Assembly: GCF_013340305.1 (NCBI RefSeq)
Contig: NZ_BLVP01000008.1
Span: 753,719-817,718, forward strand
Reading direction: 5' to 3'
Length of the DNA stretch: 64,000 nt
Origin: Desulfovibrio psychrotolerans
Lineage (GTDB): Bacteria > Desulfobacterota > Desulfovibrionia > Desulfovibrionales > Desulfovibrionaceae
Below the pieces are notes generated by a model. It saw only the letters and a list, made by a program, of their open reading frames with translations, ran no database searches and was not told the origin of the DNA. This document shows, one piece after another, positions 16,273-41,328 of this stretch; positions within the stretch are counted from its first letter, which is position 1; each line of letters begins with the position of its first letter. Both the position numbers and the translations under genes were made by a program.

Positions 16273-16274
16273 CC

Positions 16275-21855: not shown

Positions 21856-21915
21856 CATGTTCCTGTAGGGCGTGTTCCTGTGGGATGCGTTCCTGTAGGG
21901 TGTGCCACTGTAGAG
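21856..21915 (+). repeat. Four tandem ~15-bp direct repeats (nnnGTTCCTGTAGGG) immediately after the DUF697-like gene stop, upstream of the NRPS
   Basis: GTTCCTGTAGGG at 21859. GTTCCTGTGGG at 21874. GTTCCTGTAGGG at 21889. Degenerate CCACTGTAGAG at ~21904. 15-bp period. Confidence 0.7.
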
Positions 21916-22055
21916 CGCGGTCGTGTTCAATGTCAGCACGTGTTCGCTCAGCGAGTGCGCGGTCGGGGCTTCGGGACCTGGGCGACCGACCATGCTTTGT
22001 GCACAGTGTGGGGCTTGGGCTGTCCATGAAATCAGCGTGGTATACACGTAAGGTA

Positions 22056-22093: not shown

Positions 22094-22449
22094 AGTGAAA
22101 GGAAGCGCCTTGCCGTGCGGCTGTTAGCCGTTGCGGTACCTGCCGTCCTCTGACGCTTTGCCGTGGCAGAAGGGGCATAGTGCCTCCCTGCGTCAAGGCT
22201 GTGCGCCAGTACAGGTGCCTGCTTATCTGAGCCGAACAGGGCTTTATGTACCGCAGGGGTACCGGCGGGCAGCCGTTTGTTATTGCCTGTTCGTCCGGTG
22301 CTGCGGGGGCTGTGGTTGTCCCGTATCGAACCCTGCGTATGCCGGAGAGATATTGCATCACTCTCCGGTTCATACCGATGGGTGTGGCATGCGGGATTGC
22401 CATCTCCAATGGTATTCACGTGGAATTCAGGGCAGGAATCGGAATCCGA

Positions 22450-25400: not shown

Positions 25401-28400
25401 CTTCATTGTGCCGCAGCCTTTGGTGGTGCCTGTCAGGGCGCAGGAGGGGTTTGCCACCGTGCTCAATTCGTCCATACAGGCTGTGGCTGGAGCCATGGAA
25501 CACTGCATGTATCCGCCCGTGCGGCTGTACGGCGATTTGGACGTTGTGCGCGACCCGGCGCGGGGGGCGTTGTTCGATGTCATGATTACCACGCCCCAGC
25601 TTTCCCTGACTGTGCCCGTACAGGGCAATGTGCATGGCTATGAAGATGATGAAGGAATGGCTTCGCCGGACAGTCGCCCTGACAGCCAGTCGGACAGTCG
25701 CCCTGACAGCCAGCCGGACAGTCAACCGGACAGCCAGCCGGACAGCCAGCCGGACAGCCAGCCGGATACTCTGCCGCAGGATATGCCGGAAAAATTGGCG
25801 GACGATCCGCGGGGCGAAATGTCCTTGTCCTTGGGCAAGGGCAGGTTTATTTCACTCTATTCCGGCCTTGCCAGATTCGACCTGACATTCGTGACCGCCA
25901 TCTTGCCGGATGGCGGCCTGATGCTGGTGCTTGAGTACGACTCCGACCTCTACAGCCGCTCGACGGCAAAAGCCATGCTGGAATCGTTGCGGGCCATGAT
26001 TGTTGAGGGTGCATACGGGCAGCCTGTGCTGAACGGAGAAAACGCTTCCGATGCACTTTCTGCCGGAGCAGGGGAGGCGGATGCTTGCAATGCCTCCGGT
26101 CAGGCATCAGCCGCCGCATCCTCGGCTGGCACGGAAGAGCTGCGCCGCACTATGCTGGCTGTGTGGCGCACGGCTTTGGGTAGGCCGGAACTGCACGAAC
26201 GGGATAACTTTTTTACCGCCGGCGGCGACTCCATAAAAGCCATCAGCCTGTGCGGGGAGCTGCGCAAGCACGGCATTCCCCTTTCTCCCGCCCAGCTCTT
26301 CCGCTTCCCGACAGTGGCAGAGGCGGCAGAAGCATGTCGCGCAGCAGAGGCAACGCCGGAAGCCCTGCCAGACGCATGGCCGGTTCCGGTGAGCCCCGTG
26401 GCCCATATCTTCATCCCCGAACAGACGGATTTTCTGCGCAAGTTTGTGCAATCTCTCATGGTGGAAGTACGGCGCGATGAGGACCCCGCGGACGAGGACA
26501 GGCTGGAAACGGCCTTCCGGGCCGTGGTGCGGCATCATCCGGCGTTCCGGTACAGGCTGCGGCTGCATGACGGGGCGGCGTTTGAACTGCTGGGCAGTCC
26601 CCGCGTTTACTGGAAGCGGATAGCCTGCGCCGATGCGGACGTGGCGGAAACAGCCCTGCGGGAGGGCAGATCCATCCGTGAGTGGATAGACCCATGCAAG
26701 GGCTACAACGTGGGCGCCTGCCTGTTCAGTACCCCGCAGGCGGTTCTGCTGCTCGTGGTAAGCGCGCATACCAGTGTGGATATGGTGTCGTGGCGTGTAC
26801 TCAGCGATGATCTGGAAACGGCGTACCGGCGCGGCCCCGGGGCGCTTGTGTCCGGTGCTGCCGGATTTGACCAGTGGCTGCGCGCTCTGTACAGGCATGC
26901 GGAATCCGGTGCAACGGAGGGGGAACTGGAATTCTGGCGGAACATGGTGTCCGGCAGGATTGCACGGCTTCCCCTTGTCGTGGCGCAGGACGAGCAGTGG
27001 ACTATGCAGGAGGCACAAGTGTCCCCGGATGTGGTGGACCGGCTGGAAGCCCTTGCGGTGGGTAACGGTCTGGACATGCGGTCCATCCTGCTGGCCACCC
27101 TTGCGCGCAGCCTTGTCCCTGTGCTGGAAGGCGACGCGGTGCTGCTCACCTTTGAAGGCCACGGGCGGCAGGTTTCTTACTCCACGCTGGATGTGATCCG
27201 CACGGTGGGCTGGTTTACGGCGGCGTATCCCTTCCGGCTGCCGCTGGATGCGCATTCTCCGCTATCGGCTCTTGCCGGGAACCTGCTGCAACACATGCGG
27301 CAGGTGCCGGATGGCGGCACAGGCTTCTGCGTGTTGTGCCATGCCCTGAAGCGTCTTGAAAAACCGGCGGCAAGTTTCAGTTTCAACTATCACGGAAGAC
27401 AAACCGTCGAGCGCCGAGACGGGTTCGGGCTGTCCGGACACAATCCGGACCTGCTCACAGACATGGTATCCACCCGGCATTCCGATCCGGTGAACCTGTC
27501 GCTGGTTATTCTGGAAGGAACGCTGCACATCGTGGCGCAGTTCCCCGGCGGACTGCTGGATGCGGACTGGGTGCGCGCGATGCTGGACCGCTGGAGAGCG
27601 AATCTTGGCGAGATGGCCCGCTCTGCGCCTGCATCCGGTGCCTTTCCGGTTCATGCGGCAGGGCAGAACGTATTTCCCGTGCTTCCCTTGCAGGCGGCAT
27701 TGGTGGAAAGCCTGAACGAGTCGGGTCAAGCGACTGCAAGAGAGACGGCTGCCGGAACCGTTCAGATCTCCTTCCGCCTGCGCGGCAACCGGTGCGCGGC
27801 AATGCTGCCCGATGTCTGGCGGCAGGTGGTGCAGCGGCATGAATTTTTGAGAGCAGTCTTTGTGCAGAAGGGGGAAGGCAGCGTTAAGCAGCGCCTGATG
27901 CCCGAAGCTGCGCACGCGGTGACCGTGTCCGATGGTCTGGGTCTGGAGCCGGAGGTGCAGGATGCGGAATTGCAGGCGCTGCTCGGGTTTGAGCGGAAGC
28001 GCCCCTTCCTTCCGTCCGGCCCGCTCATGCGTGTTCTGTTCATGCGGCATGGCGATGATTGCTGCACCATGGCATGGACATTCCCCCGTCTGCTTCTGGA
28101 CGACCGGAGCGTGGGTATTCTGCTGCACGACCTGTGCGCACTTTACCATGCCCGTTTGCACAACGAGTCAGCAGTGCTGCCGTGTACGGTGAGTCTTGCC
28201 GGGGCGTTGTCGGGTCTGCCGTTGCAGAACGAGGATGATACGCAGGCATTCTGGCGCCGATATCTTGCCGGGACGCAGGGCTATGTGCCGCTGCTGCCTC
28301 GCAATGGCGAAATGGCCGACGCTGTTGCCGTTGCCGGGGAGACAAAAGAGTTCACGGCGGAACTGTTGCAAGTGGAAATCACCGCCCTGCGTGCGCTGGC

Positions 28401-29040
28401 CGCCCGATGCGGAGTTTCGGCAGAAGCACTGCTTTGCGCCGCATGGGGCCTGTTCCTTTCTGCCGGCTCCGGTCGCGCGGATGTACTTTTCGCCTCCATG
28501 ACCACGGCGTTGCCGCAGACGCAGCAGGCAGCGACGCAGACCGTGGGCATGTTCGGGCAGCCACTGCCCCTGCGGCTGCGGGTGCTGCCGCATTCCACCA
28601 TCTCTGCCTTGGCGGAATCTGTGGCGCAGGATATGGAGGACCGTTCGCCCGTTGCCCACATGCCGCTGCCCGCCGATGCGTGGGGAGACCTTGCTGTCAG
28701 CTCCGGGCCGGATCATCTGGTGCACTTTGGTGCGCCCCCGTTTCTTGGCGTTTCCGGCGGGTTGCGGCTGGAATCCGTGCGGATGCACGCCGGGGTGCCG
28801 CACGGCCTGTGCCTTTGGGCAGAGACGGACGGTATCGTGCGGTTCCGGTTCCGGTATGATTCGTCCGCCCATGCCCGGAAACAAGTGGAACGGATTGCGG
28901 AACATTGGCTCGGGCTGTTGCGCAGCGTCATAGAATTGCCGGAGTGCCCCGTAGCGGAAATGGGGCTTTTGGTGCCGGATGCTGCCCTGTGGGCGGCAAC
29001 GGCAGCAGGACGGCAGGCCTGCGTTCCGCAGGAACCGTGA
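22450..29040 (+). CDS. Non-ribosomal peptide synthetase, single adenylation domain, non-canonical architecture A - C - T(PCP) - E-like - terminal degenerate C
   Basis: A-domain core motifs: A3 IIFTSGSTGIPKGV, A5 YNAYGPTENAVC, A6 GELCLSGRSLAMGY, A7 YRTGDLVRW, A8 GRIGREVKVRGFRIDPGEVE, A10 NRSGKID. C domain with intact HHIVGDGQS. PCP (FFTAGGDSIKAISL). Domain with E-type signature (AHTSVDMVSWRVL). Terminal C-like domain whose HHxxxDG is replaced by PRLLLDD. Start chosen at the ATG at 22450 (MTQNRS); the ORF is open from 22246. Confidence 0.85.
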   Translation: MTQNRSLPLPPEQKAEPAAVLADDTGADCRDADSAPLTPEERAQLNVWEYGPVRPVPHGGIPALFARQVRMAPHAPALLVDGALLSYAELDAASNRVAHALLHILGGVNGNGIQPAPAVHALHVSSHSANDNGNGNGNGTGSTISSGPMNTPESADMAELAVPDRVVGVLTGRNPHLAVVALGIWKAGAVYLPLDASLPAPRLRRMMEDARVRVLFDARTDADLRARPVPDCLLPDPEKSTPEFSCAHLNMDAALLCPDHAVHRAADSAACAYIIFTSGSTGIPKGVAVSHGAFVNMICGQIAVLGITPADRLLAFALPSFDASLSEMFMALGAGASLYPVSRDIIGDTESFSAFVDSHGLTGATLPPAYLRLFQRRDFPTLRFLLTAGEAPVREDALHYAARLAYYNAYGPTENAVCATMTRIIPHGSGMENENSGSIGSNGSGRNGGSGGAEGETCAGRVPLPMGKPLPNMGTHVLGPDLAPVPPGQPGELCLSGRSLAMGYVNRPDLNAASFILCPALQNRRIYRTGDLVRWNAAGELEYLGRIGREVKVRGFRIDPGEVECALDELPDVLQCAVAAHRLPDDMGGSTALHGFLVMRGEKALPSPVMLREWLLRTLPDYMVPSGWTQLHRLPLNRSGKIDYAALAAQAAATGVDCSVPSDFSSQAAPAQKPEAAAHKSEIPGQPAAERTTPEMPTGRVLPMSFSQRQYWILHQSEASAASSNMSFVVEFSCTPGAEQALEERLRAAFGAIMDRHESLRTSFSMVDGAPMQIIHPHIPFTPDLRDLSDSLTPDEDAQDLCVELLQTPLDITQPPPLRGLLIRLSGRVWLAVSLHHIVGDGQSVGIVGHELLACMEGRALPAVEGQYQDFVHAEQQYLASPVMQTDRRYWLDVLSQGQPRADIATEYERPAFRRGRGEICRVALSGTQVADFCRRDSLPGSLFMRIVACVAMLLRSRADGDTITMGIPVSVRHKGSFGQVVGNFIVPQPLVVPVRAQEGFATVLNSSIQAVAGAMEHCMYPPVRLYGDLDVVRDPARGALFDVMITTPQLSLTVPVQGNVHGYEDDEGMASPDSRPDSQSDSRPDSQPDSQPDSQPDSQPDSQPDTLPQDMPEKLADDPRGEMSLSLGKGRFISLYSGLARFDLTFVTAILPDGGLMLVLEYDSDLYSRSTAKAMLESLRAMIVEGAYGQPVLNGENASDALSAGAGEADACNASGQASAAASSAGTEELRRTMLAVWRTALGRPELHERDNFFTAGGDSIKAISLCGELRKHGIPLSPAQLFRFPTVAEAAEACRAAEATPEALPDAWPVPVSPVAHIFIPEQTDFLRKFVQSLMVEVRRDEDPADEDRLETAFRAVVRHHPAFRYRLRLHDGAAFELLGSPRVYWKRIACADADVAETALREGRSIREWIDPCKGYNVGACLFSTPQAVLLLVVSAHTSVDMVSWRVLSDDLETAYRRGPGALVSGAAGFDQWLRALYRHAESGATEGELEFWRNMVSGRIARLPLVVAQDEQWTMQEAQVSPDVVDRLEALAVGNGLDMRSILLATLARSLVPVLEGDAVLLTFEGHGRQVSYSTLDVIRTVGWFTAAYPFRLPLDAHSPLSALAGNLLQHMRQVPDGGTGFCVLCHALKRLEKPAASFSFNYHGRQTVERRDGFGLSGHNPDLLTDMVSTRHSDPVNLSLVILEGTLHIVAQFPGGLLDADWVRAMLDRWRANLGEMARSAPASGAFPVHAAGQNVFPVLPLQAALVESLNESGQATARETAAGTVQISFRLRGNRCAAMLPDVWRQVVQRHEFLRAVFVQKGEGSVKQRLMPEAAHAVTVSDGLGLEPEVQDAELQALLGFERKRPFLPSGPLMRVLFMRHGDDCCTMAWTFPRLLLDDRSVGILLHDLCALYHARLHNESAVLPCTVSLAGALSGLPLQNEDDTQAFWRRYLAGTQGYVPLLPRNGEMADAVAVAGETKEFTAELLQVEITALRALAARCGVSAEALLCAAWGLFLSAGSGRADVLFASMTTALPQTQQAATQTVGMFGQPLPLRLRVLPHSTISALAESVAQDMEDRSPVAHMPLPADAWGDLAVSSGPDHLVHFGAPPFLGVSGGLRLESVRMHAGVPHGLCLWAETDGIVRFRFRYDSSAHARKQVERIAEHWLGLLRSVIELPECPVAEMGLLVPDAALWAATAAGRQACVPQEP
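25667..25775 (+). repeat. In-frame 12-bp tandem repeat (CCGGACAGCCAG x ~9) encoding (PDSQ/PDSR)n inside the NRPS C domain
   Basis: Protein segment PDSRPDSQSDSRPDSQPDSQPDSQPDSQPDSQPDT. Near-perfect nucleotide repeats visible directly. Confidence 0.85.
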
Positions 29041-29206: not shown

Positions 29207-30898
29207 TTGGGACTCATGCTGCAACTGAAACAATCGTATTTTCTCACGCTGCTCCGCGATAACGCCGGTGCGGAAGGGCGGCGGCTCGTGGGTGCCTGCC
29301 TTGGCGCGGGTATCATGCAGGGGCTTTGCGTCTTTACCGTGCTGCAGGGGCTGGAGCAGCTTTCTTCCGATGAGGGCATAAAGTTCCACACCTTTGCGGC
29401 ATTTCTTCTGTGCCTCGGGCTGTTCTATTATCTTTTCCGCTACATAACCGGGCAATCGGCCCTCATAGCCCTGCGCGGCGTTATGGAATGGCGCATGCGC
29501 ATTGCCACCAAGCTGCGCGGCATATCGCTGCTGGAATATGCGCGGCTGGACAGGGGGCAGGTGCAGTCCGTGCTGCTGGACGGGCGCGAGATGGTGGTGG
29601 AAGCGGCGCGTATGCTCATGGCCTCCGCAGCCAACTCCGTGATGATCCTGGTGGCTATTTGCAAGATGTTCACGGTTTCGTTTGTGGGCACTGTGGGCGT
29701 GCTGCTGCTTATGGGGCTGGGGCTTGGCATCTTTCTGCGGCTGGTGGGCAGCGTGCAGGCACTTATGGAGCCTGCGCGCAGGGCAGATCTGGAGTTTTCA
29801 TCCGGTCTGCGCGACCTGCATGACGGCCTGTTGCAACTGAAGCTGCACAAGCCCAAGACCACAGACCTGTTCAGCGGGCAGATTCTGCAGGGACTCAATA
29901 AAGCCTCCGTGGCCCGTGAGGCCATGGAACGCAGGCATGCCCTAGGCATTTCCTTCTTTGCCATGTTCAACCTGCTCATTCTGGGGCTTATCCTGTTCCT
30001 CATGCCGGGGTTTCTGGGGCTGGATGCCGAATCCACCTCCACTCTGCTGGTGCTCACCATGTTCTGTCTCAGTCCTCTGCTCAGTCTGGTGGGTTTTGTG
30101 CCGCTGATGGGCAAGGTGGAAATGAGCCTGCACGAACTCACGGACATGGAGCGCCATCTGGATGCGGTGACCGAACCCTTTGAACGGGAAGGCGTGGCTG
30201 CTAGCTGGCAGCACCCGGACCCCAAGGTACCCGCTTTTGAATCGCTTCTCCTGCGCGATGTGCGGTTTGAGTATGTGGACAGGCACGGGGCGCGCCAGTT
30301 CGGGGTGCATGTGCCCGAGTTTTCCCTGCAGCGTGGTGAGATGGTCTTCATCCGCGGGGGCAACGGTTCGGGAAAATCCACCTTCATGAACGTGCTGGCA
30401 GGGCTGTATCAGCCCCAGTCCGGCGAGTTCATCTTGAACGGCATGCCTGTGGAAGACGTGGGCATGGAGTCTTACCGCAACCTTTTTGCCGTGCTGCCTG
30501 CGGACTTCCATCTTTTCAGCCGTCCGCTGGGAGTGGATGCCTCCGCCCGCCGTACGCAAAAAATGCTGGAAAAGATGCGCTTGGATACCAAGGTGCGCAT
30601 CACCGAGGATGGTACTTTTTCCACGCTGGATTTGTCCGCCGGGCAGCGCAAACGGCTTGCCCTTGTATGCGCCATGCTTGAGGACAGGGATGTATACCTG
30701 CTGGACGAGGTTGCGGCGGACTTTGATCCGGAATTCAGGCGTTTCTTCTATGAGGAATTTTTGCCGGAACTGCGCGGGCAGGGCGCGACCATTCTCGCCA
30801 TCTCCCATGATGACCGCTTCTTCCATGTGGCGGACAGGGTGCTGTGCATGCGCGATGGAACCTTTGCGGAGAACGGGCAGCAGGAGGGATCGGCATGA
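29207..30898 (+). CDS. Cyclic-peptide-type ABC exporter, fused permease plus ATPase (SyrD/cyclic peptide transporter family)
   Basis: 563 aa. N-terminal 6-TM domain. C-terminal NBD (Walker A GGNGSGKST, signature LSAGQRKRLAL, Walker B VYLLDEVAADFD). Positioned directly after the NRPS. Confidence 0.8.
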   Translation: MGLMLQLKQSYFLTLLRDNAGAEGRRLVGACLGAGIMQGLCVFTVLQGLEQLSSDEGIKFHTFAAFLLCLGLFYYLFRYITGQSALIALRGVMEWRMRIATKLRGISLLEYARLDRGQVQSVLLDGREMVVEAARMLMASAANSVMILVAICKMFTVSFVGTVGVLLLMGLGLGIFLRLVGSVQALMEPARRADLEFSSGLRDLHDGLLQLKLHKPKTTDLFSGQILQGLNKASVAREAMERRHALGISFFAMFNLLILGLILFLMPGFLGLDAESTSTLLVLTMFCLSPLLSLVGFVPLMGKVEMSLHELTDMERHLDAVTEPFEREGVAASWQHPDPKVPAFESLLLRDVRFEYVDRHGARQFGVHVPEFSLQRGEMVFIRGGNGSGKSTFMNVLAGLYQPQSGEFILNGMPVEDVGMESYRNLFAVLPADFHLFSRPLGVDASARRTQKMLEKMRLDTKVRITEDGTFSTLDLSAGQRKRLALVCAMLEDRDVYLLDEVAADFDPEFRRFFYEEFLPELRGQGATILAISHDDRFFHVADRVLCMRDGTFAENGQQEGSA

Positions 30899-31395
30899 GA
30901 GGGGTAATTCTCTGCTACGCCGTGCTGGCCAGCTTTCTGACCATCTGTCTGGTCTGCTTTCTGGCGGTTGCGCCTGCTCAGGCGCGCAAGCTGGAACAGC
31001 GTACCAGTATTCAGGAAGTGCGCGAACTGTATGAAAATGTGAACAAAACGCGTGCCTCGGAAGTCAACGCACGGGAAAACGATGCCATTATCCGCCAGCG
31101 GCTGGAATGCTATGCGGAGTATGCCGACTACACCCCCCGTCTGCGTGTCTGCAATAATGCCTATGTAAAAGAACTGGTCAGCCAGGCACGGGATAAGGTG
31201 CGCTCGCGCCCCGATCTCGGGTGGTTTGTGGTAAATATCAACCTGTGCCCCGTCATGTACAACCTGTGCACGGGGCAGACGCAGAATGACAGGGAGCGTT
31301 GCATCCTCTTTGAGCGTCAGTGCGTGGATTATACGCTGGACAGATTCTGGCGCGGCGCGGCTCAGTACACCCATCAACAATATCGGTCCGAGTGA
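30895..31395 (+). CDS. Small secreted cysteine-rich hypothetical protein (signal peptide, 6 Cys)
   Basis: Start ATG overlaps the ABC exporter stop (ATGA). Signal peptide MRGVILCYAVLASFLTICLVCFLAVAPAQA. Mature ~136 aa with 6 Cys (ECYAEY, RVCNN, NLCPV, NLCTG, ERCIL, RQCVD). Confidence 0.5.
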   Translation: MRGVILCYAVLASFLTICLVCFLAVAPAQARKLEQRTSIQEVRELYENVNKTRASEVNARENDAIIRQRLECYAEYADYTPRLRVCNNAYVKELVSQARDKVRSRPDLGWFVVNINLCPVMYNLCTGQTQNDRERCILFERQCVDYTLDRFWRGAAQYTHQQYRSE

Positions 31396-32603
31396 TGATG
31401 AAAACGCTGTATATCAAGATACGCAATCTGCTGAGGCGGTACCGGATGTTCCTCGTATCCACGGGACTGCTCTTCGTGCTGTTTTTTGTCTTCTTCTGGC
31501 CGGATATCATCATAAGCATCCGGCCGGGTGAACTGGGTGTGTACTACTCCCGCCTGTTCGGCGGAACCAGAATGGACAGGACGTACGAGGAAGGGGTGCA
31601 CTTCATTCCTCCGTGGGACATCCTTTATGTGTATGACGTGCGCATTCAGGAAGAAACGCAGGAAGTGGAAGTGCTCACGCTGGACGGTCTGACGGTCAAG
31701 GTCCATGTTTCGCTGCGTTATCAGATCATCCGCGACAGACTGCCCGTTCTGCATCAGCAGATCGGACCGGAGTATAAGCGCAAGGTCATTCTTCCCATCA
31801 TGACATCGGCGGTACGCCAGACCATAGGCAGCTACAGGCCCGATGCGCTGTATTCCACGGCGCGGCAGGAACTGCAGGATAAAATGCTCGTGGATGCGGT
31901 GGAAGAACTGGGCCGCCTGCCCCTCATCGTGCATGGGTTTGTGGTGAAGAAAATCAGCCTGCCGGAAGTGCTCAGAGACGCCATTGTGGACAAGCTGGTG
32001 GCCGAACAGAAGTATCTGCGCTATTACTATATCCTGCTCGAAGAACGGGAAGAGGCAAAGCGCAAGGCCATAGAAGGGCAGGGTATCCGTTTCTACCAAT
32101 CGCTGGTCAACGAAAACATGACCGAGAACTACCTGCGCTATGAAGGCATTAAGGCAACGCATAAGCTTGCCGCGTCAGAGAACGCCAAGGTGGTGGTCGT
32201 GGGAAGCGGCAAGGATGGTTTGCCCATTATCCTGAATACGCAGGATACGCCGCGGATTCCGGATATGACGAACGCAACCCGCGAGGCGAGGGAGCGGCAG
32301 GATAAATTCGGGCGCAGACAGGCAACCCCGGCGGCATCGGAAAGCAACTCCACCGCAGCTGACTCGGCAGCGGGCAATGCATCCGCAAGAGGTGTTGTAG
32401 GAGGCGGTTCCGCACCCAACATGCGCGAAGAAGGCGGATGGAAGCAGTGGCAACTGCGCGAGCCGGAATTGCTTGAGTTTATGAAAAAACTGGATGCCAC
32501 ACTGCTGAACCCGAACAGGCAGGCGCCCGGTGCGTCCGGTTCGCCCGGTGCGTACGGTTCACAGGGTGACGAGAATGGCAATAAGGGGCAAGGCAGGCGA
32601 TAG
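31395..32603 (+). CDS. SPFH/band-7 (prohibitin/stomatin/HflC-like) membrane protein
   Basis: Start overlaps the previous stop (TGATG). N-terminal TM (FLVSTGLLFVLFFVFFW). SPFH core (VYYSRLFGG...EGVHFIPPWDILYVYDVRIQE...LTLDGLTVKVHVSLRYQI). Coiled-coil. Gly/Ala-rich tail. Confidence 0.75.
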   Translation: MMKTLYIKIRNLLRRYRMFLVSTGLLFVLFFVFFWPDIIISIRPGELGVYYSRLFGGTRMDRTYEEGVHFIPPWDILYVYDVRIQEETQEVEVLTLDGLTVKVHVSLRYQIIRDRLPVLHQQIGPEYKRKVILPIMTSAVRQTIGSYRPDALYSTARQELQDKMLVDAVEELGRLPLIVHGFVVKKISLPEVLRDAIVDKLVAEQKYLRYYYILLEEREEAKRKAIEGQGIRFYQSLVNENMTENYLRYEGIKATHKLAASENAKVVVVGSGKDGLPIILNTQDTPRIPDMTNATREARERQDKFGRRQATPAASESNSTAADSAAGNASARGVVGGGSAPNMREEGGWKQWQLREPELLEFMKKLDATLLNPNRQAPGASGSPGAYGSQGDENGNKGQGRR

Positions 32604-32717
32604 CCGCCTGTGCAGGGGGGCCTTTTCCGCAGACTGATCAGGCGTGACAGTGCGGAGCGGGCACAGGTGTTCGCCGAGTTTATGCCGTGGCCGGACCAAA
32701 CGCAACGGAGTGAGATC

Positions 32718-32999
32718 ATGGTTGTATTACTCTTTTTCCTTGTTGGAAGCATCATTGTCGGGTTTCTGGGAAGGTACTGCCGGTTCGGTTTCTGGGGGCA
32801 TTTCTTTGCCAGCGTGTTGCTTACGCCCGTGGTAGGTCTGCTGCTGGTGCTTGCGGCTGGACCGGGGTGCCGTGATCGGCGCGATGCCCATGCCACTTCT
32901 TCCCGGACCGGCTCGACAGACGGAACCCGGGCCGGAACCCGGGCCGGAACCGGAGCCGAAACTGAAGCCGGAGCGGGCACCGCAGGCGGCAATGTCTGA
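32718..32999 (+). CDS. Small 2-TM membrane protein with low-complexity Thr/Gly/Ala-rich tail (possible NfeD-like partner of the SPFH protein)
   Basis: GGAGTGAG RBS 6 nt upstream of the ATG at 32718. Sequence MVVLLFFLVGSIIVGFLGRY...VLLTPVVGLLLVLAAG. Tail encoded by a 12-bp tandem DNA repeat at ~32915-32955. Confidence 0.45.
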   Translation: MVVLLFFLVGSIIVGFLGRYCRFGFWGHFFASVLLTPVVGLLLVLAAGPGCRDRRDAHATSSRTGSTDGTRAGTRAGTGAETEAGAGTAGGNV

Positions 33000-33038
33000 G
33001 CGTGAAATACCGTTTTTCATTTGTCATCCGGGGTACGC

Positions 33039-34136
33039 ATGCCGCCTCATCTGAACATTGCCCTCTCCAGCGTTGTGTTACGGCTATTGGGCTGCCTCCT
33101 CATGCTGGGTGCACTGGCAGCCGCGTCCCCCGTCAAGGCGTCAGAAGCCGGGACGGGCGGAGAAAAAATCAGGCGCATCGGCTATCTGGAAGCCGGACAT
33201 TTCTGGCTGTTTGAACGCACCTTTCAGGCTTTCCGCGATGCCTTGCAGGAGCGCGGAATCCGTGCGGATTTTCCCGCAGACGCCCGGTTCAGCCCCGGAT
33301 GGGAGCCTGAAAACATGGCCCGCCTGCCGCAGGCTGCTGCGGCACTGATGCAACGGGATGACCTTGATCTTGTTGTAGGCATGGGAACGGCAGCCATGAA
33401 GGCCCTGCTGGCGGCCAATACCGGACAGACCCCGATCATGGGTATGGGCATGGCAGACCCCGTTGCGGCGGGCGTGGTGGCGGGGCCGGAAGATTCCGGT
33501 GCGGAGAATGTTACCTGCCATATCGTTGCAGACCGCTGGTCCACCATGTTCAGGGTATTCCACGACGTGGTGGGCTTCCGTACTCTGGGTATTCTGTATA
33601 ACGACAGCCCGGAAGGCCGGGTTTATGCCGCTCTGGATGACGCCCGCGCCGTGGCTTCGGAGCTGGGATTCGGCATTGCCGAATATGGCGGGCTTTCCTC
33701 TGCGGAAACAGAAGCGGAATGCCGTGCGGGGCTGGATGCCCTGCGGGCGCAGGGCATGGATGCCTTTTTCATTGGCCCGCTGAACTGTTTCGACTGGCAG
33801 ACCAGCAACGTGGCATCGCTGCTGGAACTGCTGAACGGCTGGAACATTCCTACCTTTGCCCGCGATGGATCAGATTTTGTGCGGGCAGGGGCACTTATGG
33901 GCTTTTCCACATGGAATTTCGGTCCGTCAGGCACTTTTCTGGCGCGGCAGGCGGCGGCAGTCTTCAATGGCACCTCCCCCCGCGCCATTCCCATGCTGGA
34001 CAGGGTGGAGCCGACCATTGCCATTAATCTGGAAACCGCCGGACGCATCGGGTTTATCTTCCCTCTGGACGTGCTGGTGGTTTCCGATGAAATCCACGAG
34101 CGGATAACACTGCCTGCCGCAGGAAAGGAGCAGTAG
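33039..34136 (+). CDS. ABC-transporter-type periplasmic binding protein, COG2984/PF04392 family (paralog 2)
   Basis: Signal peptide (MPPHLNIALSSVVLRLLGCLLMLGALAAASPVKA). Shares the same conserved blocks as the 20122-21195 paralog. 3-bp gap before the sensor-MFS fusion gene. Confidence 0.65.
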   Translation: MPPHLNIALSSVVLRLLGCLLMLGALAAASPVKASEAGTGGEKIRRIGYLEAGHFWLFERTFQAFRDALQERGIRADFPADARFSPGWEPENMARLPQAAAALMQRDDLDLVVGMGTAAMKALLAANTGQTPIMGMGMADPVAAGVVAGPEDSGAENVTCHIVADRWSTMFRVFHDVVGFRTLGILYNDSPEGRVYAALDDARAVASELGFGIAEYGGLSSAETEAECRAGLDALRAQGMDAFFIGPLNCFDWQTSNVASLLELLNGWNIPTFARDGSDFVRAGALMGFSTWNFGPSGTFLARQAAAVFNGTSPRAIPMLDRVEPTIAINLETAGRIGFIFPLDVLVVSDEIHERITLPAAGKEQ

Positions 34137-34138
34137 CC

Positions 34139-36859
34139 GTGGAGATGGAAACCCCAACTTCTGCTGCTGTGTCGGGCTCCGTATCTAGCTCCGGACCTGA
34201 ACATCCCGCAGGACTTTTCCAGCTGCGTATGGGCATCGGGGTGCTGTGCCTCGGCGTGCTGGTTCTCACGCTCGGATTCAATGTGCTGCTTTCCGTGTCC
34301 ACGCTGGACAGGCTGGCAACGGCCTCGCTGCTTTCGGGCTATCGCGCTGCAGGCGAGCATGTGGCGCTGAGTATTGAACGCGGACTGCGATTCGGCAAAC
34401 CCCTTGCACAGTACGCGGGCATGGTGGAGATGCTGGATGACCTGCGTGACGGCGCAGGCAATATCCGCTCCGTTCAGGTGCTGGATGTCTCCGGGACACC
34501 GCTGTATTCCGTCGCGACAATTGAGGGCGGCAGGGACAGCATGCCCCCCGCAGACTCCGGCAGCGGGTATGCCGCAAAGGATGATGGCTCTCCCGGTGAC
34601 GGTACACGGACGTTTGATCGCGCAATGCTTGAAGCAGCCCGGAAGGGGGCGGCGGTAGATAACGGGGAAGACTTTCTTGCAAAGGCAGATGTCTACCGCA
34701 TTGTCATTCCGCTGCAATATCAGGGTATCGCGGGCGGGTTGGCGCTGGATATAGACAGGTCGCATGTGGATTCCGTCACCGATGGATTTTCCCGTTGGGC
34801 CGCCTTGCTGCTGGTGGTGGCGTGCGCGGCTGTGTGTGTGACGCTGGCGGGGTGGATATGGCTGCTCACCGCCACGCCCGAAGCCCGGGCCCGGCTCCAG
34901 AAATCCCTGTCCCTGCTGCTGCTTGTCCTCATCGGCGGCACGCAGCTTGCGTATTCCCTCGCTATGGTCACGCTGTTCGACTCGTTCATGGAACATGCCG
35001 TGCGTGAAAAGGTGGACATGGCGGCCCGGTTCATCAAGCGCGACTTTGAGTACATTATCCACAAGGGGGTGGATGTGCGCTCCATCCGCGGGGGAGAGGC
35101 CCTGCTTGCCCGCATTGTGGAGGCGCACGCCGAAGTGGCAGGTGCCGAGATGGTGCTGCCGGACGGGACAATGCTTGCCTCTGCCGGAGACATCACGCAG
35201 GGGGGCCATATTGTGGAGCGTTCTGTGGATGGTTACTGGCCAAGCCGTTTCCGGCAGCGCGAAGAGGCCATGCGCATACGCCTGCATGTGGACAATGCCC
35301 ATGTGGCGGCCGGGGTGCGCAGCCTGAGCGTGGACCTCGTCACCTCCTTCGTCATCAGCCTGCTGTTTCTCATGGAGCTTGCGCGGCTGCTGAGCATGGT
35401 GTCTGTGCGTTTTACCAGATCCATGCTTGCCGCAGAAGGGGATGCGGGGCAGACGACACGAAAGGTGACTGGCCGGGCGAAGGGGCGGACAATCGGCCGG
35501 ACAGCGGGAGTAACCGTTTGCACATCGCAGGCTCTGCGGGCCGCCGGTTTTTTGTTTTTTCTCGGTTACGACATGGGAATCTCGTTCATTCCGTTGCTGG
35601 CGCGTAATTTCAAGGCCCCGCTGTGGGGTTTTTCCGAACAGGTACAGGCCGGGCTGCCCATATCCGCAGAGATGATTTGCGCCGGTGTGGCTCTGCTGCT
35701 GGCTGGCATCCTCTCCGAGCGTTTCGGCTGGCGCATGGCGTTTGCGCTGGGAGCCGTGGCCGCCTCCGCAGGGCTGATAATGGGGTGGGCCGCCACCTCG
35801 TTGCCGGCCCTTATCGTGGCGCGCGGTGCTTCCGGCTTCGGCTTCGGGTTGGTGCTCATGGCCGTGCAGCTGGGAACGCTGGGAGATGAAAAGGCCGGTG
35901 CGGGCTTAGCGGGCGTTTTCGCGGGAATTTTTTCCGGCAGCATCTGTGGTTCCGCTGCCGGGGCCATGCTGGCGGAGCGGCTGGGGTTTGAAACGGTGTT
36001 TCTGGTGGCCGCCGTGCTGGTTCCCGTGTCCATTCTGGCGTTGTATGTAGGCGGTGGCTGGGCTTCCGGTTCTGTTCCGGAAAACTGCCCCGTGGGTAAG
36101 ACTGCTAAGGCAGAGAAGGCCGATAACGCCGGGCAGGATGACCTTTCCGTCCCTGCGGTACCACATGTCACCCCTGCGCCGGGAGCGGCCGGAGCCGCGC
36201 TCGCCTTTCTGCTCGACCCGCGCATGCTGTTCCTGCTCGCCATGGTGGGCATTCCCGCTTCTGTGTGTCTGACGGGATTCCTCTACTACCTGCTGCCGCT
36301 CGTGCTGAACGGTGCGCACGTGAGCCAGTCGGACATCGGCCGTATCTTCATGGTTTACGGGCTGTGCTTCATCACGGTGGGGCCCATGCTGGGCAGGCTG
36401 CTGGACAGGGCCCGGGACAAGGGGGCCTTTGCCATGCTCACGGGGGTGTTTTCCGGGGTTTCCCTGCTTGCCGCCGCTCTTTCTCTGGCGTTTCTTGATG
36501 TCATGCCCGCAGGGCATGAGGCAGAAGGTGCCGGAGCGGTGCAGGGGATGATGACACCTCAAGGCATCGCCATCATTGTGTTATCCGTCCTGCTCATCGG
36601 AGTGGCCCAGTGCCTTGCAGCTCCCGCAACCATTCTTTGCGTTACCTCGCTGGGGTCCGCGCGTCGGCTGGGGCGGGAAAAGGCGGCCAGTTTTTACCGG
36701 ACGCTGGAACGGATGGGGCAGGTGCTGGGGCCTATTCTTTTCGGCGTTGCGCTGGTGCGCATGGGGGCCGCACATACCCTGCTGGCCGTGGGGGCGGGCG
36801 TGTGCCTGCTCGCCATACTGTTCATGGTGGTATGGCGCATCAGCAGCCGGAAGGATTGA
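34139..36859 (+). CDS. Fusion protein: N-terminal membrane-anchored sensor-like module (~450 aa: TM, periplasmic domain, TM, cytoplasmic linker) joined to a C-terminal 12-TM MFS transporter
   Basis: Single 906-aa ORF with no internal stops. N-terminal part has TM1 (GIGVLCLGVLVLTLGFNVLL), a ~190-aa periplasmic segment, TM2 (WAALLLVVACAAVCVTLAGWIWLL) and a ~200-aa cytoplasmic region. C-terminal part has MFS features (GYDMGISFIPLLARNF, ...GFGFGLVLMAVQLG..., twelve hydrophobic spans). Confidence 0.6.
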   Translation: MEMETPTSAAVSGSVSSSGPEHPAGLFQLRMGIGVLCLGVLVLTLGFNVLLSVSTLDRLATASLLSGYRAAGEHVALSIERGLRFGKPLAQYAGMVEMLDDLRDGAGNIRSVQVLDVSGTPLYSVATIEGGRDSMPPADSGSGYAAKDDGSPGDGTRTFDRAMLEAARKGAAVDNGEDFLAKADVYRIVIPLQYQGIAGGLALDIDRSHVDSVTDGFSRWAALLLVVACAAVCVTLAGWIWLLTATPEARARLQKSLSLLLLVLIGGTQLAYSLAMVTLFDSFMEHAVREKVDMAARFIKRDFEYIIHKGVDVRSIRGGEALLARIVEAHAEVAGAEMVLPDGTMLASAGDITQGGHIVERSVDGYWPSRFRQREEAMRIRLHVDNAHVAAGVRSLSVDLVTSFVISLLFLMELARLLSMVSVRFTRSMLAAEGDAGQTTRKVTGRAKGRTIGRTAGVTVCTSQALRAAGFLFFLGYDMGISFIPLLARNFKAPLWGFSEQVQAGLPISAEMICAGVALLLAGILSERFGWRMAFALGAVAASAGLIMGWAATSLPALIVARGASGFGFGLVLMAVQLGTLGDEKAGAGLAGVFAGIFSGSICGSAAGAMLAERLGFETVFLVAAVLVPVSILALYVGGGWASGSVPENCPVGKTAKAEKADNAGQDDLSVPAVPHVTPAPGAAGAALAFLLDPRMLFLLAMVGIPASVCLTGFLYYLLPLVLNGAHVSQSDIGRIFMVYGLCFITVGPMLGRLLDRARDKGAFAMLTGVFSGVSLLAAALSLAFLDVMPAGHEAEGAGAVQGMMTPQGIAIIVLSVLLIGVAQCLAAPATILCVTSLGSARRLGREKAASFYRTLERMGQVLGPILFGVALVRMGAAHTLLAVGAGVCLLAILFMVVWRISSRKD

Positions 36860-37793
36860 GCAGGTCTTCCATCTCCGGCAGACAGGGGTCGTCCAGCCCC
36901 TGTGGCAGGTAGAGTGAGAGCAGTTGGCGGTAGTCGTCCATGTCTATGAGCCTGCCGCCGTTTTCAGCAAACTGCCTGAATTCTTCTTCTGTGGGGTAGC
37001 TGAAATACTGCTCCTGTGTCTTGTCCTGCGATGTGCCGGGCAGCCGTTCTTCCCGTTCCAGCACGGGCAGGTGGCGCAAAAACGCTTCTATGCCTGCAAA
37101 ATATGTCTGCACAAAATTCCAGAGCAGCGAACGGTCATACCGTATATCTGCCCAGCCCACGTCCACCACGTCGCCACTGTCTATGCCGGGGTCAATGTGG
37201 AAGACCGTGCAGCCTGAGCGGGCATGACGCATCTGCATGGCGCGAAAAGGGCCGCATAATCCCTGAATCTGAGGCAATACACCGGGGTGCATGCCATATA
37301 TGCCAAGGCGGGGAATGGAGATGATGTCTTCTCTGAAGATGAAGTCGTACCGGCAGGAGAGTATGACATCCGGGGCAAGGGCGCGCATGGCGGCGGCCGC
37401 TTCGGGCCTGCTGGCCCGGCCCCATAGTTCGACCGGAATGCCGAATTTTTTGGAAATTCCGGAAAATGTTTGGTATTCTGCAGTACTGCCTTCCGGGAAC
37501 CTGTCATCCAGATAGGGGTAAAACAGTTTCAGGGGCATATCCCGTTCATGATTGAGCAGGCATGCTGCCAGCAGGTTTGCCCGCTCCGCCTTGAGCACAT
37601 AGTCGGAGAGAACCACATGGACATTGTGGCGGGGAGCAAGCGCGCTCACAAGCCTGTTCAGAGCCAGATTTCCCGCAAGATCACGTTTGGTGCAGATGAC
37701 GATTTTCAAAGGGCCGCCATGGGGAGTCGTTGAAGCCTGAAAGGGGAACGCCGCGTCGGGGAGGGAAGATAGCACGGGCTGCGGCGGGAGCAC
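36840..37793 (-). CDS. Formyltransferase-family protein (PF00551-like; divergent, not canonical Fmt)
   Basis: 317 aa. Formyl-transferase catalytic region GIYGMHPGVLPQIQGLCGPFRAM (N-x-H-x-SLLP-type motif), aligned from memory to Fmt GCINVHGSLLPRWRGAAPI. Convergent with the MFS fusion gene and overlaps its 3' end by 20 bp. Confidence 0.5.
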   Translation of the reverse strand: MLPPQPVLSSLPDAAFPFQASTTPHGGPLKIVICTKRDLAGNLALNRLVSALAPRHNVHVVLSDYVLKAERANLLAACLLNHERDMPLKLFYPYLDDRFPEGSTAEYQTFSGISKKFGIPVELWGRASRPEAAAAMRALAPDVILSCRYDFIFREDIISIPRLGIYGMHPGVLPQIQGLCGPFRAMQMRHARSGCTVFHIDPGIDSGDVVDVGWADIRYDRSLLWNFVQTYFAGIEAFLRHLPVLEREERLPGTSQDKTQEQYFSYPTEEEFRQFAENGGRLIDMDDYRQLLSLYLPQGLDDPCLPEMEDLLNPSGC

Positions 37794-38088: not shown

Positions 38089-41000
38089 ATGGAGCAGTAT
38101 TCCGGGATACTTGTCGGGTTGGTGCAGAATGTGGCGCTTCTTCTGGCGGCGGCCCTGTTCTTTGATCTTTTTGCCTCGCGTTGGCGCAGGGGGGTGGGAC
38201 ACCTGCCCGCCAAGCTGTTCACGGGCTTCCTGCTCGGTGTTATCGGCATGGTGGTCATGCTTACGCCGTGGACCTTCACACCTGGCGTTATGTTCGATAC
38301 CCGTTCGGTGCTGATAGGTATAACCGGGCTGTTCTTCGGTACTATTCCTGTCCTTGTGACCATGGGCATGACGGCAGCACTGCGTCTGTATCAGGGCGGG
38401 GCTGGGGCAGTCATGGGTGTCAGCGTCATACTTACTTCCGGTATCATCGGCCTGCTGTGGAGATACCGCACCCGGCGGCTGGAAGGACTTTCATGGCCGC
38501 AGCTGTATATCTTCGGCCTGGCCATCCATATCGTCATGCTCATGCTCACGCTGACTCTTCCCGGCGACATCGCCTTGCGTGTGTTCTCCGGTATCTGGCT
38601 GCCTGTCCTGTTGATCTATCCCGTTGCCACAGCCCTGCTCGGCAGCCTTATGTCGCGCCGTCTCACCAGCGATGCCATGGAAGATTCGCTTTGTGCCAGC
38701 GAACTGCGCCACAGAATCATTTTTGAGAACAGCCCGCTGGGTATGATTCTGTTCGATTCCTCGGGCACCGTGGTGGATTGCAACGATAAGTTCGTGGAGC
38801 TTATGGGTTCATCCCGCGACAAGGTCATAGGCTTCAATACCGTGCGGCAAAGCTCGCCTGCCATGAGTGCCGCCCTGCAACGTGCCCTGAACGGTCAGCC
38901 GTCCACGTTTGAGGATGCCTACACCTCCGTTACGGGTGGCAGGCACCTGATTCTTCGCGTCATTTTCAATCCCGTGCGCCCGGGGGGTTCGCCCACAGAG
39001 GTCATCGCCACGCTGGAAGACATTACCGAACGCAGGCAGGCAGAGGAATCGCTGCGCGCCCGCGAGGCAGCCCTGAACAGCATATTCCGGGCCGCTCCCG
39101 TAGGCATAGGCGTGGTTGTGGACCGGGTTTTTGTTCGGGTCAATGACCGGCTGTGCGAGATGACAGGATACTCGCAGGAGGACTTGGTAGGCAGCAACGC
39201 CCGGATGCTCTATCCCGATGACGAAAGCTACCGTTACGTGGGGGATGAAAAGTACCGGCAGATACGGGAACGCGGAACGGGAACGGTGGAAACGCATTGG
39301 CGGCGCAAGGACGGTGGCATCATGGATGTGCTGCTCAGTTCCACCCCCATGAATCTTGCAGACTATTCGGTGGGGGTAACCTTTACGGCGCTGGATATCA
39401 CCGAACGCAAGCGGGGCGAAGAGATGTTGCGGGAGAGCGAGGCCCGTTTCCGCACGCTGCACAATGCCTCGTTCGGGGGCATAACTATCCATGATCATGG
39501 ACTTATTCTCGACTGTAATCAGGGGCTTGCGGATATTACCGGGTATACGGTGGATGAACTGGTGGGCATGGACGGCTTGCTGCTTATTGAAGAGTCCTGT
39601 CGGGGCGACGTGATGGAGAGGATTCGAGCCGGCTATGAAAAACCCTATGAATCACTTGGAGTGCGTAAGAACGGCGAGGTCTACCACATTCGCCTTGAAG
39701 CGCGGCAGATACCCTATAAAGGGCGGCAGGTCCGCGTGGTGGAATTCCGGGATATAACAGAACAGAAGCGGGCGGAAGAGGCCATCCGGCAGAGCGAGGA
39801 ACGCTTCCGCCTGATTATTGAAGATGTGGAGGTGGCTGTGCAGGGCTACGACAGCAACCTGCGGGTGATATACTGGAACAGGGCCAGCGAACGGCTTTAC
39901 GGCTATACCGATGAAGAGGCCATGGGGCGGTCTCTGTTGGAGTTGATCATACCGGAACCTATGAGGGATGGTGTGAAGGAGGCGGTAGAAAACTGGGTGC
40001 GCAACGGGGTGCCCATTCCGGCTGCGGAATTGGTGCTGCAGCATAAAGATGGGTCCGAGGTGCCCGTGTATTCTTCGCACGCCATCCAGCGCAGACCGGG
40101 CGGCGATATGGAACTGTTCTGCGTGGATGTGGACCTCTCCGACTTCCGCAAGATGCACACGGCACTGCTTGCAGCCAAGGAGCAGGCAGAGGCGGCAAGC
40201 CGCAGCAAGTCTGAATTTCTGGCCAACATGAGCCATGAACTGCGCACCCCGCTCAATGGCATTATGGGTATGCTGCAACTTATGGAGGCAACCCACCTTG
40301 ACGAGGAGCAGAGGGATTATGCCCGTGCGGCACTTGAATCATCCCGGCGTCTTACCCGCCTGCTCAGCGATATTCTGGACTTGTCGCGCATTGAGGCAGG
40401 CAAGATGGAACTCTACATGGAGCCGTTCGACCTGAGGGAGACGCTGCATTCCATGGAACTGCTGTTCCGCCCCAGTGCCAGCCAGTCCGGCAACCTTCTG
40501 GAATTCAGGATTTCAGAGGATTTTCCGCCCAGACTCATGGGAGATGTGGTCCGGCTGCAGCAGGTGATAAGCAATCTGGTGGGTAACGCCCTCAAGTTTA
40601 CAAAGGGCGGGTCCGTAACTGTGGAAGCATATCCCCTGCAGGCCATAAAGCCCCATGAGTACAGGGTGCTTTTTGCCATTGCGGATACGGGAGTGGGTAT
40701 TCCGGACGATAAACAGAACGAGTTGTTTCATCCCTTTACGCAGGTGGATGGAAGCATGGCCCGCCAGCATCAGGGCGCGGGGCTGGGGCTTTCCATCTGC
40801 AAGCGTCTGGTGGCCCTCATGGGAGGGAGTATCTCCATAGCCAGTGAAGAAGGGGTGGGAACCACCGTGCACTTCTGTGTCACGCTGGGGCGGAGCGATG
40901 ACGCCGTCCTGGTGCCGGAGGAACTGGAATCTGCCGAAAGCGCATTGCCTGAGCGGCCGTTGCGTATTCTGCTGGCAGAGGATGAACGGGTGAACCGCTC

Positions 41001-41328
41001 GCTCGTTATTAAGCTCATGGAAAAGCACGGGCACGCTGTTACTGCCGTGGAGGATGGGCAGCAAGCCGTGCGTGCGCTGGCGGCAGAGGAGTTTGATGTG
41101 GTGCTTATGGACGTGCAGATGCCTGTAATGGACGGCGTGCAGGCCACGCGGGCCATACGCGAAGGGACCGCCGGAAAGGACAGAAAGAACGTGCCCATCA
41201 TCGCGCTTACCGCGCATGCCATGTCAGGTGACCGTGAACGCCTGCTGGAAGCAGGCGTGGACGAGTATCTGGCCAAACCTTTCGATGTGGGCACGCTGCT
41301 CCGTATTCTACGCCGCTCCATGCGTTAA
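38089..41328 (+). CDS. Hybrid sensor histidine kinase/response regulator with N-terminal 5TM LytS-type receptor domain and multiple PAS domains
   Basis: 1079 aa. 5TMR-LYT-like N-terminus. At least 4 PAS/PAC modules. HisKA ([11 protein letters not shown]). HATPase_c (DTGVGI...GAGLGLSI). C-terminal REC (LLAEDERVN...[14 protein letters not shown]...KPF). Confidence 0.85.

Follow-up and report, generated by a model that had tools for sequence, protein, structure and literature searches.

What is the role of a compact string of six genes that follows a non-ribosomal peptide synthetase (NRPS) gene in Desulfovibrio psychrotolerans, and does this string belong with the NRPS? The string occupies positions 29207–36859 of a 64,000-nucleotide stretch of contig NZ_BLVP01000008.1 (hereafter, the window). 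It encodes, in this order, an ABC half-transporter (the exporter), a Cys-rich protein, an SPFH protein, a peptide with two transmembrane (TM) helices, a periplasmic solute-binding protein (SBP) of the PF04392 family, and a fusion of a sensor-like N-terminal region with a transporter of the major facilitator superfamily (MFS). The original prediction, made from the DNA letters, treated the six genes as one unit that produces, exports and then senses or re-imports the NRPS product. We propose, with about an even chance of being right, that an NRPS cluster typical of Desulfovibrionaceae has the string as its transport and envelope half, and that the string combines two modules, one for peptide export and the other for recognition or uptake by a binding-protein-coupled MFS transporter. 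All functional roles given below are inferred from sequence, structure prediction and gene context.

The gene string and its conserved block

Forty-nine genome loci were fetched via the alignment of fusion homologues, and all window proteins were mapped onto them by tblastn. A second set of loci, anchored on the Cys-rich protein, was collected from metagenome contigs to avoid ascertainment via the fusion. In 12 species-representative genomes of Desulfovibrionaceae, including D. desulfuricans, two Nitratidesulfovibrio and Halodesulfovibrio metagenome-assembled genomes (MAGs), the genes share the order SBP2 (a second binding protein of the PF04392 type), DUF697 membrane protein, exporter, Cys-rich protein, SPFH protein, 2-TM peptide, SBP, fusion, and a convergent formyltransferase-like gene. 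The unit of six genes that had been delimited originally is thus too short, as the conserved block also holds SBP2 and DUF697 upstream and the formyltransferase-like gene downstream. In all 17 close metagenome loci anchored on the Cys-rich protein, the exporter gene is directly upstream and the SPFH gene directly downstream as far as the contigs reach, and the whole block is present in every such locus with enough flanking sequence. The 18th and most distant locus (L073) keeps the Cys-rich, SPFH, 2-TM and SBP2-like genes and lacks the exporter; no fusion gene was found in the remaining ~4 kb of its contig.

The packing of the genes is conserved together with their order. The exporter and Cys-rich genes overlap by ATGA (30895–30898), and the junction between the Cys-rich and SPFH genes is TGATG (31393–31397). 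A gap of 114 nt separates the SPFH gene from the 2-TM gene, whose ATG at 32718 is preceded at seven bases by GGAG (32707–32710), and 39 nt separate the 2-TM gene from the SBP start codon, ATG 33039. These four junctions had been read correctly in the original prediction; the gap between the SBP and fusion genes is 2 nt rather than 3 if the fusion starts at GTG 34139, and 8 nt if it starts at ATG 34145, as in the 904-aa NCBI protein. On three further contigs, gene calls place 4-nt overlaps at the exporter/Cys-rich and Cys-rich/SPFH junctions and a gap of ~10 nt between SBP and fusion. The same gene order and 4-nt overlaps recur across genera, in loci that are just 45–70% identical at the protein level, and for this reason the string is more than a chance arrangement. 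That the genes are neighbours by chance or through an assembly artefact is accordingly hardly credible, given also that a sequence-identical independent contig exists. The conserved gene packing is consistent with an operon.

All six genes were confirmed as plus-strand open reading frames (ORFs), and an independent gene caller applied to the sequence-identical public contig returned the same six; their originally proposed domain assignments all hold against Pfam and NCBIfam. Two start codons deserve comment. The exporter most likely begins at ATG 29216 (560 aa), not at TTG 29207 as first proposed. For the 2-TM gene, the homologues favour the originally chosen start at 32718 over that of the gene caller, which over-called the gene as 129 aa from GTG 32610. 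The fusion is 100% identical to an NCBI protein of D. psychrotolerans whose public annotation is just 'MFS transporter'.

SBP2 is 39% identical to the SBP and probably starts at ATG 20122, just before its signal peptide; it lies upstream of the DUF697 and exporter genes in every full locus. The formyltransferase-like gene overlaps the 3' end of the fusion gene by 20 nt in the window, and an overlap of about this length belongs to the shared block. Its product matches the N-terminal catalytic domain of the Fmt (Met-tRNA formyltransferase), ArnA and PurN enzymes. This gene is kept beside the fusion even where the exporter module is missing (L003, L011), and it is co-directional with the fusion in L020 and L046.

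The block is linked to NRPS genes nearly everywhere, in four different forms, so that relatives of the window do carry homologues of the string beside such genes. In the form seen in most genomes, the genes directly before SBP2 encode a KamA-family radical-SAM aminomutase, a type II thioesterase and an Sfp-type phosphopantetheinyl transferase (PPTase), and an NRPS of 5.5–5.8 thousand aa is transcribed divergently from KamA. Two loci (L063 and L057) have a co-directional NRPS upstream of SBP2 that ends in adenylation (A), thiolation (T) and thioesterase (TE) domains; L063 is the related contig with the fusion most similar to ours outside the window lineage (58% identity). In the window and its close relative L002, the NRPS is inserted between the DUF697 and exporter genes. 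The fourth layout, in L073, runs NRPS, beta-lactamase-fold protein, thioesterase and PPTase, followed by the Cys-rich, SPFH, 2-TM and SBP2-like genes. An NRPS directly upstream of the exporter, originally taken as the partner of the string, is therefore a feature of the window lineage; in all other loci, DUF697 and the exporter are ~180–420 bp apart with no NRPS homologue between them.

The window NRPS has the unusual domain order A-C-T-C-C, without a T domain after its A domain and without a TE domain. It is 25–29% identical to, and collinear with, part of a 5809-aa Nitratidesulfovibrio NRPS; the large NRPSs of related clusters likewise contain units of a condensation (C) and a T domain without A domains. 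Among the carriers of the complete cluster is D. desulfuricans. Elsewhere, the L053 locus (LT599022.1, 10001–21173) has the KamA, thioesterase and PPTase genes followed by a gene for a 547-aa protein and a P2-like prophage, with no cassette; no NRPS was found upstream of its KamA gene. In the NRPS cluster of Humidesulfovibrio idahonensis (L055), a chemoreceptor gene stands in place of an adjoining cassette.

A scan for promoter and terminator consensus sequences at 19.4–38.2 kb gave counts at the level of shuffled sequence and nothing usable for operon boundaries, and an Rfam scan of 14–42 kb returned zero families. The repeat search found only low-complexity coding repeats, the SBP/SBP2 paralogy and one intergenic repeat. 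The latter is a 15-nt direct repeat, GTTCCTGTAGGGYGT, present in three to four copies at 21859–21918, right after the DUF697 stop codon and within the 392-bp gap before the NRPS gene; a regulator of the inserted NRPS might bind there. Among the coding repeats, a 12-nt tandem repeat with about ten copies (25665–25784) falls into the NRPS linker that joins the first C domain to the T domain.

Table 1. Location and supporting evidence of the features in and around the gene string (window coordinates).
Feature	Position	Strand	Evidence
SBP2, second PF04392-type binding protein	19990..21195	+	tblastn cross-hit with SBP; orthologues carry PF04392
DUF697 (PF05128) membrane protein	21243..21854	+	Pfam; synteny; always paired with SBP2
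NRPS, 2264 aa, A-C-T-C-C	22246..29040	+	Pfam
ABC half-transporter, SyrD/PvdE/YojI type	29216..30898	+	PF00005, TIGR01194, six hydrophobic segments
Cys-rich protein, 166 aa	30895..31395	+	Alignment of homologues; no Pfam family
SPFH/Band 7 protein, prohibitin-like	31395..32603	+	PF01145
2-TM peptide	32718..32999	+	Homologous ORFs between SPFH and SBP, 10 loci
SBP, PF04392 periplasmic solute-binding protein	33039..34136	+	PF04392
Sensor-MFS fusion, 906 aa	34139..36859	+	MFS_1 C-terminal; two PDC-like domains N-terminal
Formyltransferase-fold protein	36840..37709	-	PF00551; longest ORF reaches 37793
5TMR-LYT / PAS hybrid histidine kinase	38089..41328	+	Pfam, tblastn; possibly associated

Proteins of the two modules

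The first module comprises the exporter, the Cys-rich protein, the SPFH protein and the 2-TM peptide, with SBP2 and DUF697 upstream, and in the loci examined it was confined to Desulfovibrionaceae and related contigs, where it adjoins NRPS genes. The exporter matches TIGR01194 (cyclic peptide export ABC transporter) over residues 22–551 of 560 with 287.0 bits (cut-off 286.2), and does not reach the YojI equivalog model PRK10522 (263 against the required 604). It has the layout of a half-transporter, with six hydrophobic segments in residues 24–295 and the ABC_tran domain at 368–499, and its relatives in the PDB are type-IV exporters such as CydC and ABCB1. In view of its genomic linkage to NRPS genes, it may move a non-ribosomal or cyclic peptide.

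The Cys-rich protein consists of an N-terminal hydrophobic signal or anchor and a ~130-aa helical domain with six invariant cysteines. A word-index search found ten homologues, all of ~158–190 aa and none with a Pfam domain, and the gene always lies between those of the exporter and SPFH, except in the exporter-less L073. Its AlphaFold2 (AF2) model is all-helical and of low confidence (pLDDT 67.6, one of five models passable), and a Foldseek comparison of this model with the PDB gave no match below E = 1. The SPFH protein matches Band_7 (PF01145) with 99.2 bits against a gathering score of 23.6, and Prohibitin-2 (8rrh) with an E-value of 4e-14. Its only TM helix is N-terminal and follows a K/R-rich stretch, and its C-terminal tail is of low complexity; because of this single helix and the charge of the N-terminus, the SPFH domain is predicted to face the periplasm, as in HflK/C. 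No NfeD partner adjoins the SPFH gene, as would be seen in an SPFH-NfeD operon, and the downstream gene encodes instead the 2-TM peptide, with a conserved core of ~50 aa (RFGFWGxFFASxLLTPxVGLLLV) and a low-complexity tail specific to the window. The 2-TM gene is called as 55 aa in L052 and L054. Neither Pfam nor NCBIfam has a family for the Cys-rich protein or the 2-TM peptide.

The second module comprises the SBP, the fusion and the formyltransferase-like enzyme; it is distributed independently of the first, and its SBP and fusion are co-inherited across phyla. The SBP carries PF04392 (46.2 bits against 25.9) behind a Sec signal peptide with a hydrophobic segment at residues 7–25, and its closest NCBIfam model is the tryptophan SBP TrpX, with a score far below the cut-off. 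The closest PDB relatives are 6hni, 3lkv and 3lft, the first of which is the tyrosine-binding protein CD0873 of Clostridioides difficile that has been assigned to tyrosine import (PMC6816091). At 14.9–41.3 kb and in the homologous blocks, no genes for an ABC permease or ATPase were found that could serve the SBP or SBP2. The sole ABC importer in the window (8179–12151) has its own binding protein of the SBP_bac_8 type.

The fusion is laid out as TM, PDC-like domain, TM, TM, PDC-like domain, TM and a 12-TM MFS part. A confident AF2 model of residues 1–470, built from 49 sequences (mean pLDDT 84.5), predicts four TM helices and places two alpha/beta domains in the periplasm, separate from each other, at ~54–222 and ~283–400. 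These modelled domains have the features of the PDC fold, namely a long helix at the N-terminus, a sheet of five strands with flanking helices, and a position between TM helices; one of the weak Foldseek hits to the model was the periplasmic domain of LuxQ (E 0.05). The 'sensor' label that the protein had received is thereby backed by structure prediction, in the form of two PDC/Cache-like periplasmic domains. Pfam assigns no family to residues 1–468, with only sub-threshold matches of sCache_3_2 and dCache_1 in distant relatives. BLASTP found no sequence similarity between the two PDC units, and the repeat is therefore structural only. Conservation in the periplasmic part is highest in three loops, ERGLRFGKPL (~80–89) and RDFEYxxHKGVD (~301–312) at helix ends and YWPSRFRQ (~366–373), which may form the surface for a partner or ligand.

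In the C-terminal part, MFS_1 matches residues 469–782 (79.5 bits against 33.4), and there are ~12 hydrophobic segments after residue 469. Motif A occurs in both halves (GxxSERFGWR and GRLLDR), and E511 and R562, located in predicted TM helices, are invariant down to 25% identity; these intact motifs fit an active transporter. No sequence relative of the MFS part was found in the PDB. No kinase, methyl-accepting chemotaxis, cyclase or phosphatase domain was found in the same protein, and its output domain is the MFS part.

An exhaustive HMMER search with residues 1–464 of the fusion yielded 296 representatives of clusters formed at 50% identity. Among the best 150 of these 296, almost all are 750–860 aa long, the length expected for the N-terminal region plus an MFS domain; the N-terminal region thus occurs almost exclusively in fusion with an MFS. 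Every long relative scanned carries the MFS domain, with the extra length taken up by more copies of the N-terminal unit or by a LysM domain. A 'Rosetta stone' fusion of SBP and transporter was considered among these long relatives and rejected, as the extra length is not an SBP. The link between SBP and fusion is seen in the neighbourhood instead: of the 31 loci whose contigs extend at least 1.5 kb to the upstream side of the fusion and 4.5 kb to its downstream side, 30 have a PF04392 gene within 6 kb of the fusion gene, usually within 3 kb.

The pair also occurs without an NRPS, in Geobacter, Desulfuromonas, Negativicutes and Mailhella, and its surroundings differ between clades. In Geobacter, Negativicutes and Victivallales, the order is a 5TMR-LYT-SpoIIE phosphatase of the PP2C type, SBP, fusion and a ~240-aa protein with a GNAT-like motif, the GNAT assignment coming from motif inspection. 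Mailhella and gut Desulfovibrio have a SpoIIE phosphatase, the fusion, a 493-aa protein of unknown family and, further downstream, the SBP. In Desulfuromonas and other 'delta' MAGs, the fusion is followed by a convergent gene for a 253-aa Antibiotic_NAT-like protein (a sub-threshold match, 21.7 against the Pfam cut-off of 25) and by the SBP. The order in L020 is SpoIIE, SBP, fusion and formyltransferase, and that in L041 is SPFH, 2-TM, SBP, fusion and alanine racemase. The recurring neighbours of the fusion are thus an N-acyl- or formyltransferase-like enzyme and, in three of the four clades, a PP2C phosphatase. The alanine racemase gene of L041 (4710–5786) overlaps the end of the fusion gene, and in the D. 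desulfuricans locus L017 a VanX-like D-Ala-D-Ala dipeptidase gene (13271–14074) comes after the formyltransferase gene.

The hybrid kinase gene of the window, which is 300 bp away from the formyltransferase gene on its far side, is a conserved neighbour only in L002. The 5TMR-LYT input domain of the kinase is the one found fused to SpoIIE before the SBP and fusion in Geobacter, Negativicutes and Victivallales. A HlyD-like/AcrB pump of the resistance-nodulation-division (RND) type at 14935–19559 lies directly upstream of SBP2. It was considered as a conserved member of the cassette and rejected, since related loci are without it or carry, at a different place, an RND pump that is not its orthologue (23% identity); its association may be loose or coincidental. 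In L063, an OEP-HlyD-RND set, again not orthologous, lies downstream of the cassette. Unrelated housekeeping and signalling genes make up the flanks of the window, including those for MotAB, acetyl-CoA carboxylase, single-stranded DNA-binding protein, a PotD-type importer, a GGDEF protein and the futalosine pathway. The region 54001–56000, with an unannotated 213-aa ORF on one side and an acetyl-CoA synthetase-like gene on the other, has a G+C content of 0.49, compared with 0.57–0.63 elsewhere in the window.

Proposed mechanism and alternative explanations

In the two-module reading, the exporter would carry the peptide or its precursor across the inner membrane into the periplasm, and the SPFH protein, its 2-TM partner and the disulfide-rich Cys-rich protein would form an envelope assembly associated with the exporter. 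The SBP would bind a small amine or an amino-acid-like ligand in the periplasm, which in this cluster may be the peptide itself, a piece of it or one of its building blocks. The loaded protein would dock on the PDC domains of the fusion, as LuxP does on LuxQ, and docking would drive or gate transport through the MFS part. The cytoplasmic formyltransferase-like enzyme would then modify the compound. The single produce-export-sense system proposed originally is retained here in part: its exporter module is linked to NRPS genes, but the SBP and fusion are widespread without an NRPS and are not dedicated to it.

Several observations weigh against this reading. The NRPSs of different lineages are 25–40% identical while the cassette stays at 55–70%, which is odd for product-specific recognition. 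In H. idahonensis (L055, 1–12845), a 5503-aa NRPS is found with KamA, thioesterase and PPTase, and the cassette is not adjacent, whereas L003, L007 and L011 carry the SBP and fusion, with or without the formyltransferase, and no NRPS. The exporter passes its TIGR01194 cut-off marginally, and the structural model of the Cys-rich protein is uninformative. Neither a TonB-dependent receptor nor a regulator is conserved in the block, and no such receptor was found among the scanned genes at 12–58 kb or in the scanned flanks of related loci; how a large peptide would be taken back through the outer membrane is thus not explained by this reading.

The retention of the cassette while the NRPS changes would be accommodated if its genes served self-protection. 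The NRPS product would then be a toxic, amine-bearing compound; the exporter and the SPFH, Cys-rich and 2-TM proteins would guard the envelope, the SBP and PDC-MFS fusion would sense or pump the compound, and the formyltransferase-like enzyme would N-acylate it. In clades without the NRPS, the SBP, fusion and acyltransferase would provide resistance against the compounds of neighbours. The recurrence of the fusion beside N-acyl- or formyltransferase-like enzymes, including the homologue of Antibiotic_NAT (AAC(3)-like) and the GNAT-like protein, agrees with such a role, as does the KamA-family aminomutase of most clusters, which suggests a beta-amino acid. We nevertheless consider self-protection rather unlikely, because the Antibiotic_NAT match stays below the Pfam cut-off and the GNAT assignment comes from motif inspection only. 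In addition, binding proteins are not known to us to supply efflux pumps. The occurrence of the second module without an NRPS in many lineages could also reflect uptake of a nutrient or precursor, with the SBP, fusion and formyltransferase acting as an SBP-assisted MFS importer of an amino acid or small amine that in Desulfovibrionaceae merely lies beside the export module and may provide it with a building block of the peptide. The tyrosine-binding relative CD0873 (PMC6816091), the TrpX model and the alanine racemase (L041) and D-Ala-D-Ala dipeptidase (L017) neighbours are all in line with this. The module is, however, joined to the NRPS export module by gaps of tens of bases in 12 genomes and ~17 metagenome contigs, and its PP2C partner in other clades suggests signalling over plain nutrition, which makes a purely nutritional role unlikely.

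The same PP2C partner raises the possibility of pure signalling, in which a non-transporting MFS body would act as a scaffold or transducer, like the sensor UhpC, and relay the occupancy of the SBP to the PP2C phosphatase of other clades or, in the window, to the 5TMR-LYT hybrid kinase. As typical sensor inputs, PDC/Cache folds agree with this idea, as do the SpoIIE-type phosphatases encoded immediately before the module in three clades and the hybrid kinase gene close by in the window. On the other hand, motif A in both halves and the invariant intramembrane charges are those expected of an active transporter, the Desulfovibrionaceae block contains no conserved regulator, and the kinase is a neighbour in the window and L002 only; we regard this explanation as quite improbable. 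Within the preferred two-module reading, a further and more tentative proposal, to which we give clearly less than an even chance, is that the PF04392 SBP and the (PDC)2-MFS fusion represent an unrecognised class of binding-protein-coupled secondary transporter or transporter-receptor, widespread in anaerobes, which was recruited together with the exporter/envelope module into Desulfovibrionaceae NRPS clusters to recapture or monitor the secreted peptide.

Comparison with known systems and significance

The closest parallel for the export half is provided by the pyoverdine and syringomycin clusters, in which an NRPS likewise stands beside a half-transporter of the PvdE/SyrD/YojI family (TIGR01194) with six TM helices and a nucleotide-binding domain, followed by periplasmic or envelope genes. 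The type II thioesterase and PPTase genes in clusters related to that of the window are another shared trait. In contrast, the block described here lacks the known periplasmic maturation enzymes, and its host is a strict anaerobe. The orphan Cys-rich protein, the SPFH protein, the 2-TM peptide, DUF697 and the two PF04392 SBPs occur in no described cluster of that type known to us. Of the components of siderophore recycling, the NRPS and the exporter are present, and no TonB receptor or iron-release enzyme was found in the window at 12–58 kb or in the scanned flanks of related loci. For the SPFH protein, the HflK/HflC and prohibitin assemblies offer a comparable single N-terminal TM anchor, a predicted trans-side SPFH domain and prohibitin sequence similarity; however, there is no FtsH-type protease here and no NfeD, and the partners are the ~50-aa 2-TM peptide and the Cys-rich protein, coupled to an ABC exporter.

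The recognition half resembles LuxP-LuxQ and TorT-TorS in that a binding-protein gene adjoins a gene for a membrane protein with PDC-fold periplasmic domains, of which the fusion has two. The output of those systems is a histidine kinase, whereas that of the fusion is a 12-TM MFS part; they have one tandem PDC unit, whereas each PDC domain of the fusion is bracketed by its own TM pair; and the SBP belongs to PF04392 rather than to the LuxP/TorT type, with docking being our inference. The TRAP (DctPQM) and TTT (TctABC) systems also have an orphan SBP beside a secondary transporter with no ABC permease or ATPase nearby. Their binding proteins and membrane components are unrelated to PF04392 and PF07690, so the resemblance is functional only, and the MFS protein differs in having dedicated periplasmic domains, with its dependence on the SBP presumed. 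ABC importers that use PF04392 proteins, such as TrpXYZ and the CD0873 tyrosine system, share the SBP family; permease and ATPase genes are absent here, and the neighbours are instead the PDC-MFS fusion (for SBP) and DUF697 (for SBP2).

We found no description of the block or of the fusion family in the literature, in line with the original view that this is not a described system. What appears new is an NRPS accessory cassette of unusual composition and, with it, an undescribed family of SBP and PDC-MFS proteins. To our knowledge, TRAP and TTT are the only recognised families of binding-protein-dependent secondary transporters. If the proposed mechanism is true, an SBP-using MFS protein with built-in PDC domains would be a third principle and a new form of coupling between sensing and transport. 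The family is sizeable, with its 296 clusters drawn from gut and environmental sulfate reducers, Geobacter, Desulfuromonas and Negativicutes, and its annotation goes no further than 'MFS transporter'. As far as we know, hardly any exploration has been made of the peptides that strict anaerobes such as Desulfovibrio produce by non-ribosomal synthesis. The conserved, compact accessory cassette marks NRPS clusters of the Desulfovibrio type and provides handles for finding their product and its role, and the SPFH gene, translationally coupled to that of an ABC exporter, offers a testable case of what bacterial SPFH scaffolds organise.

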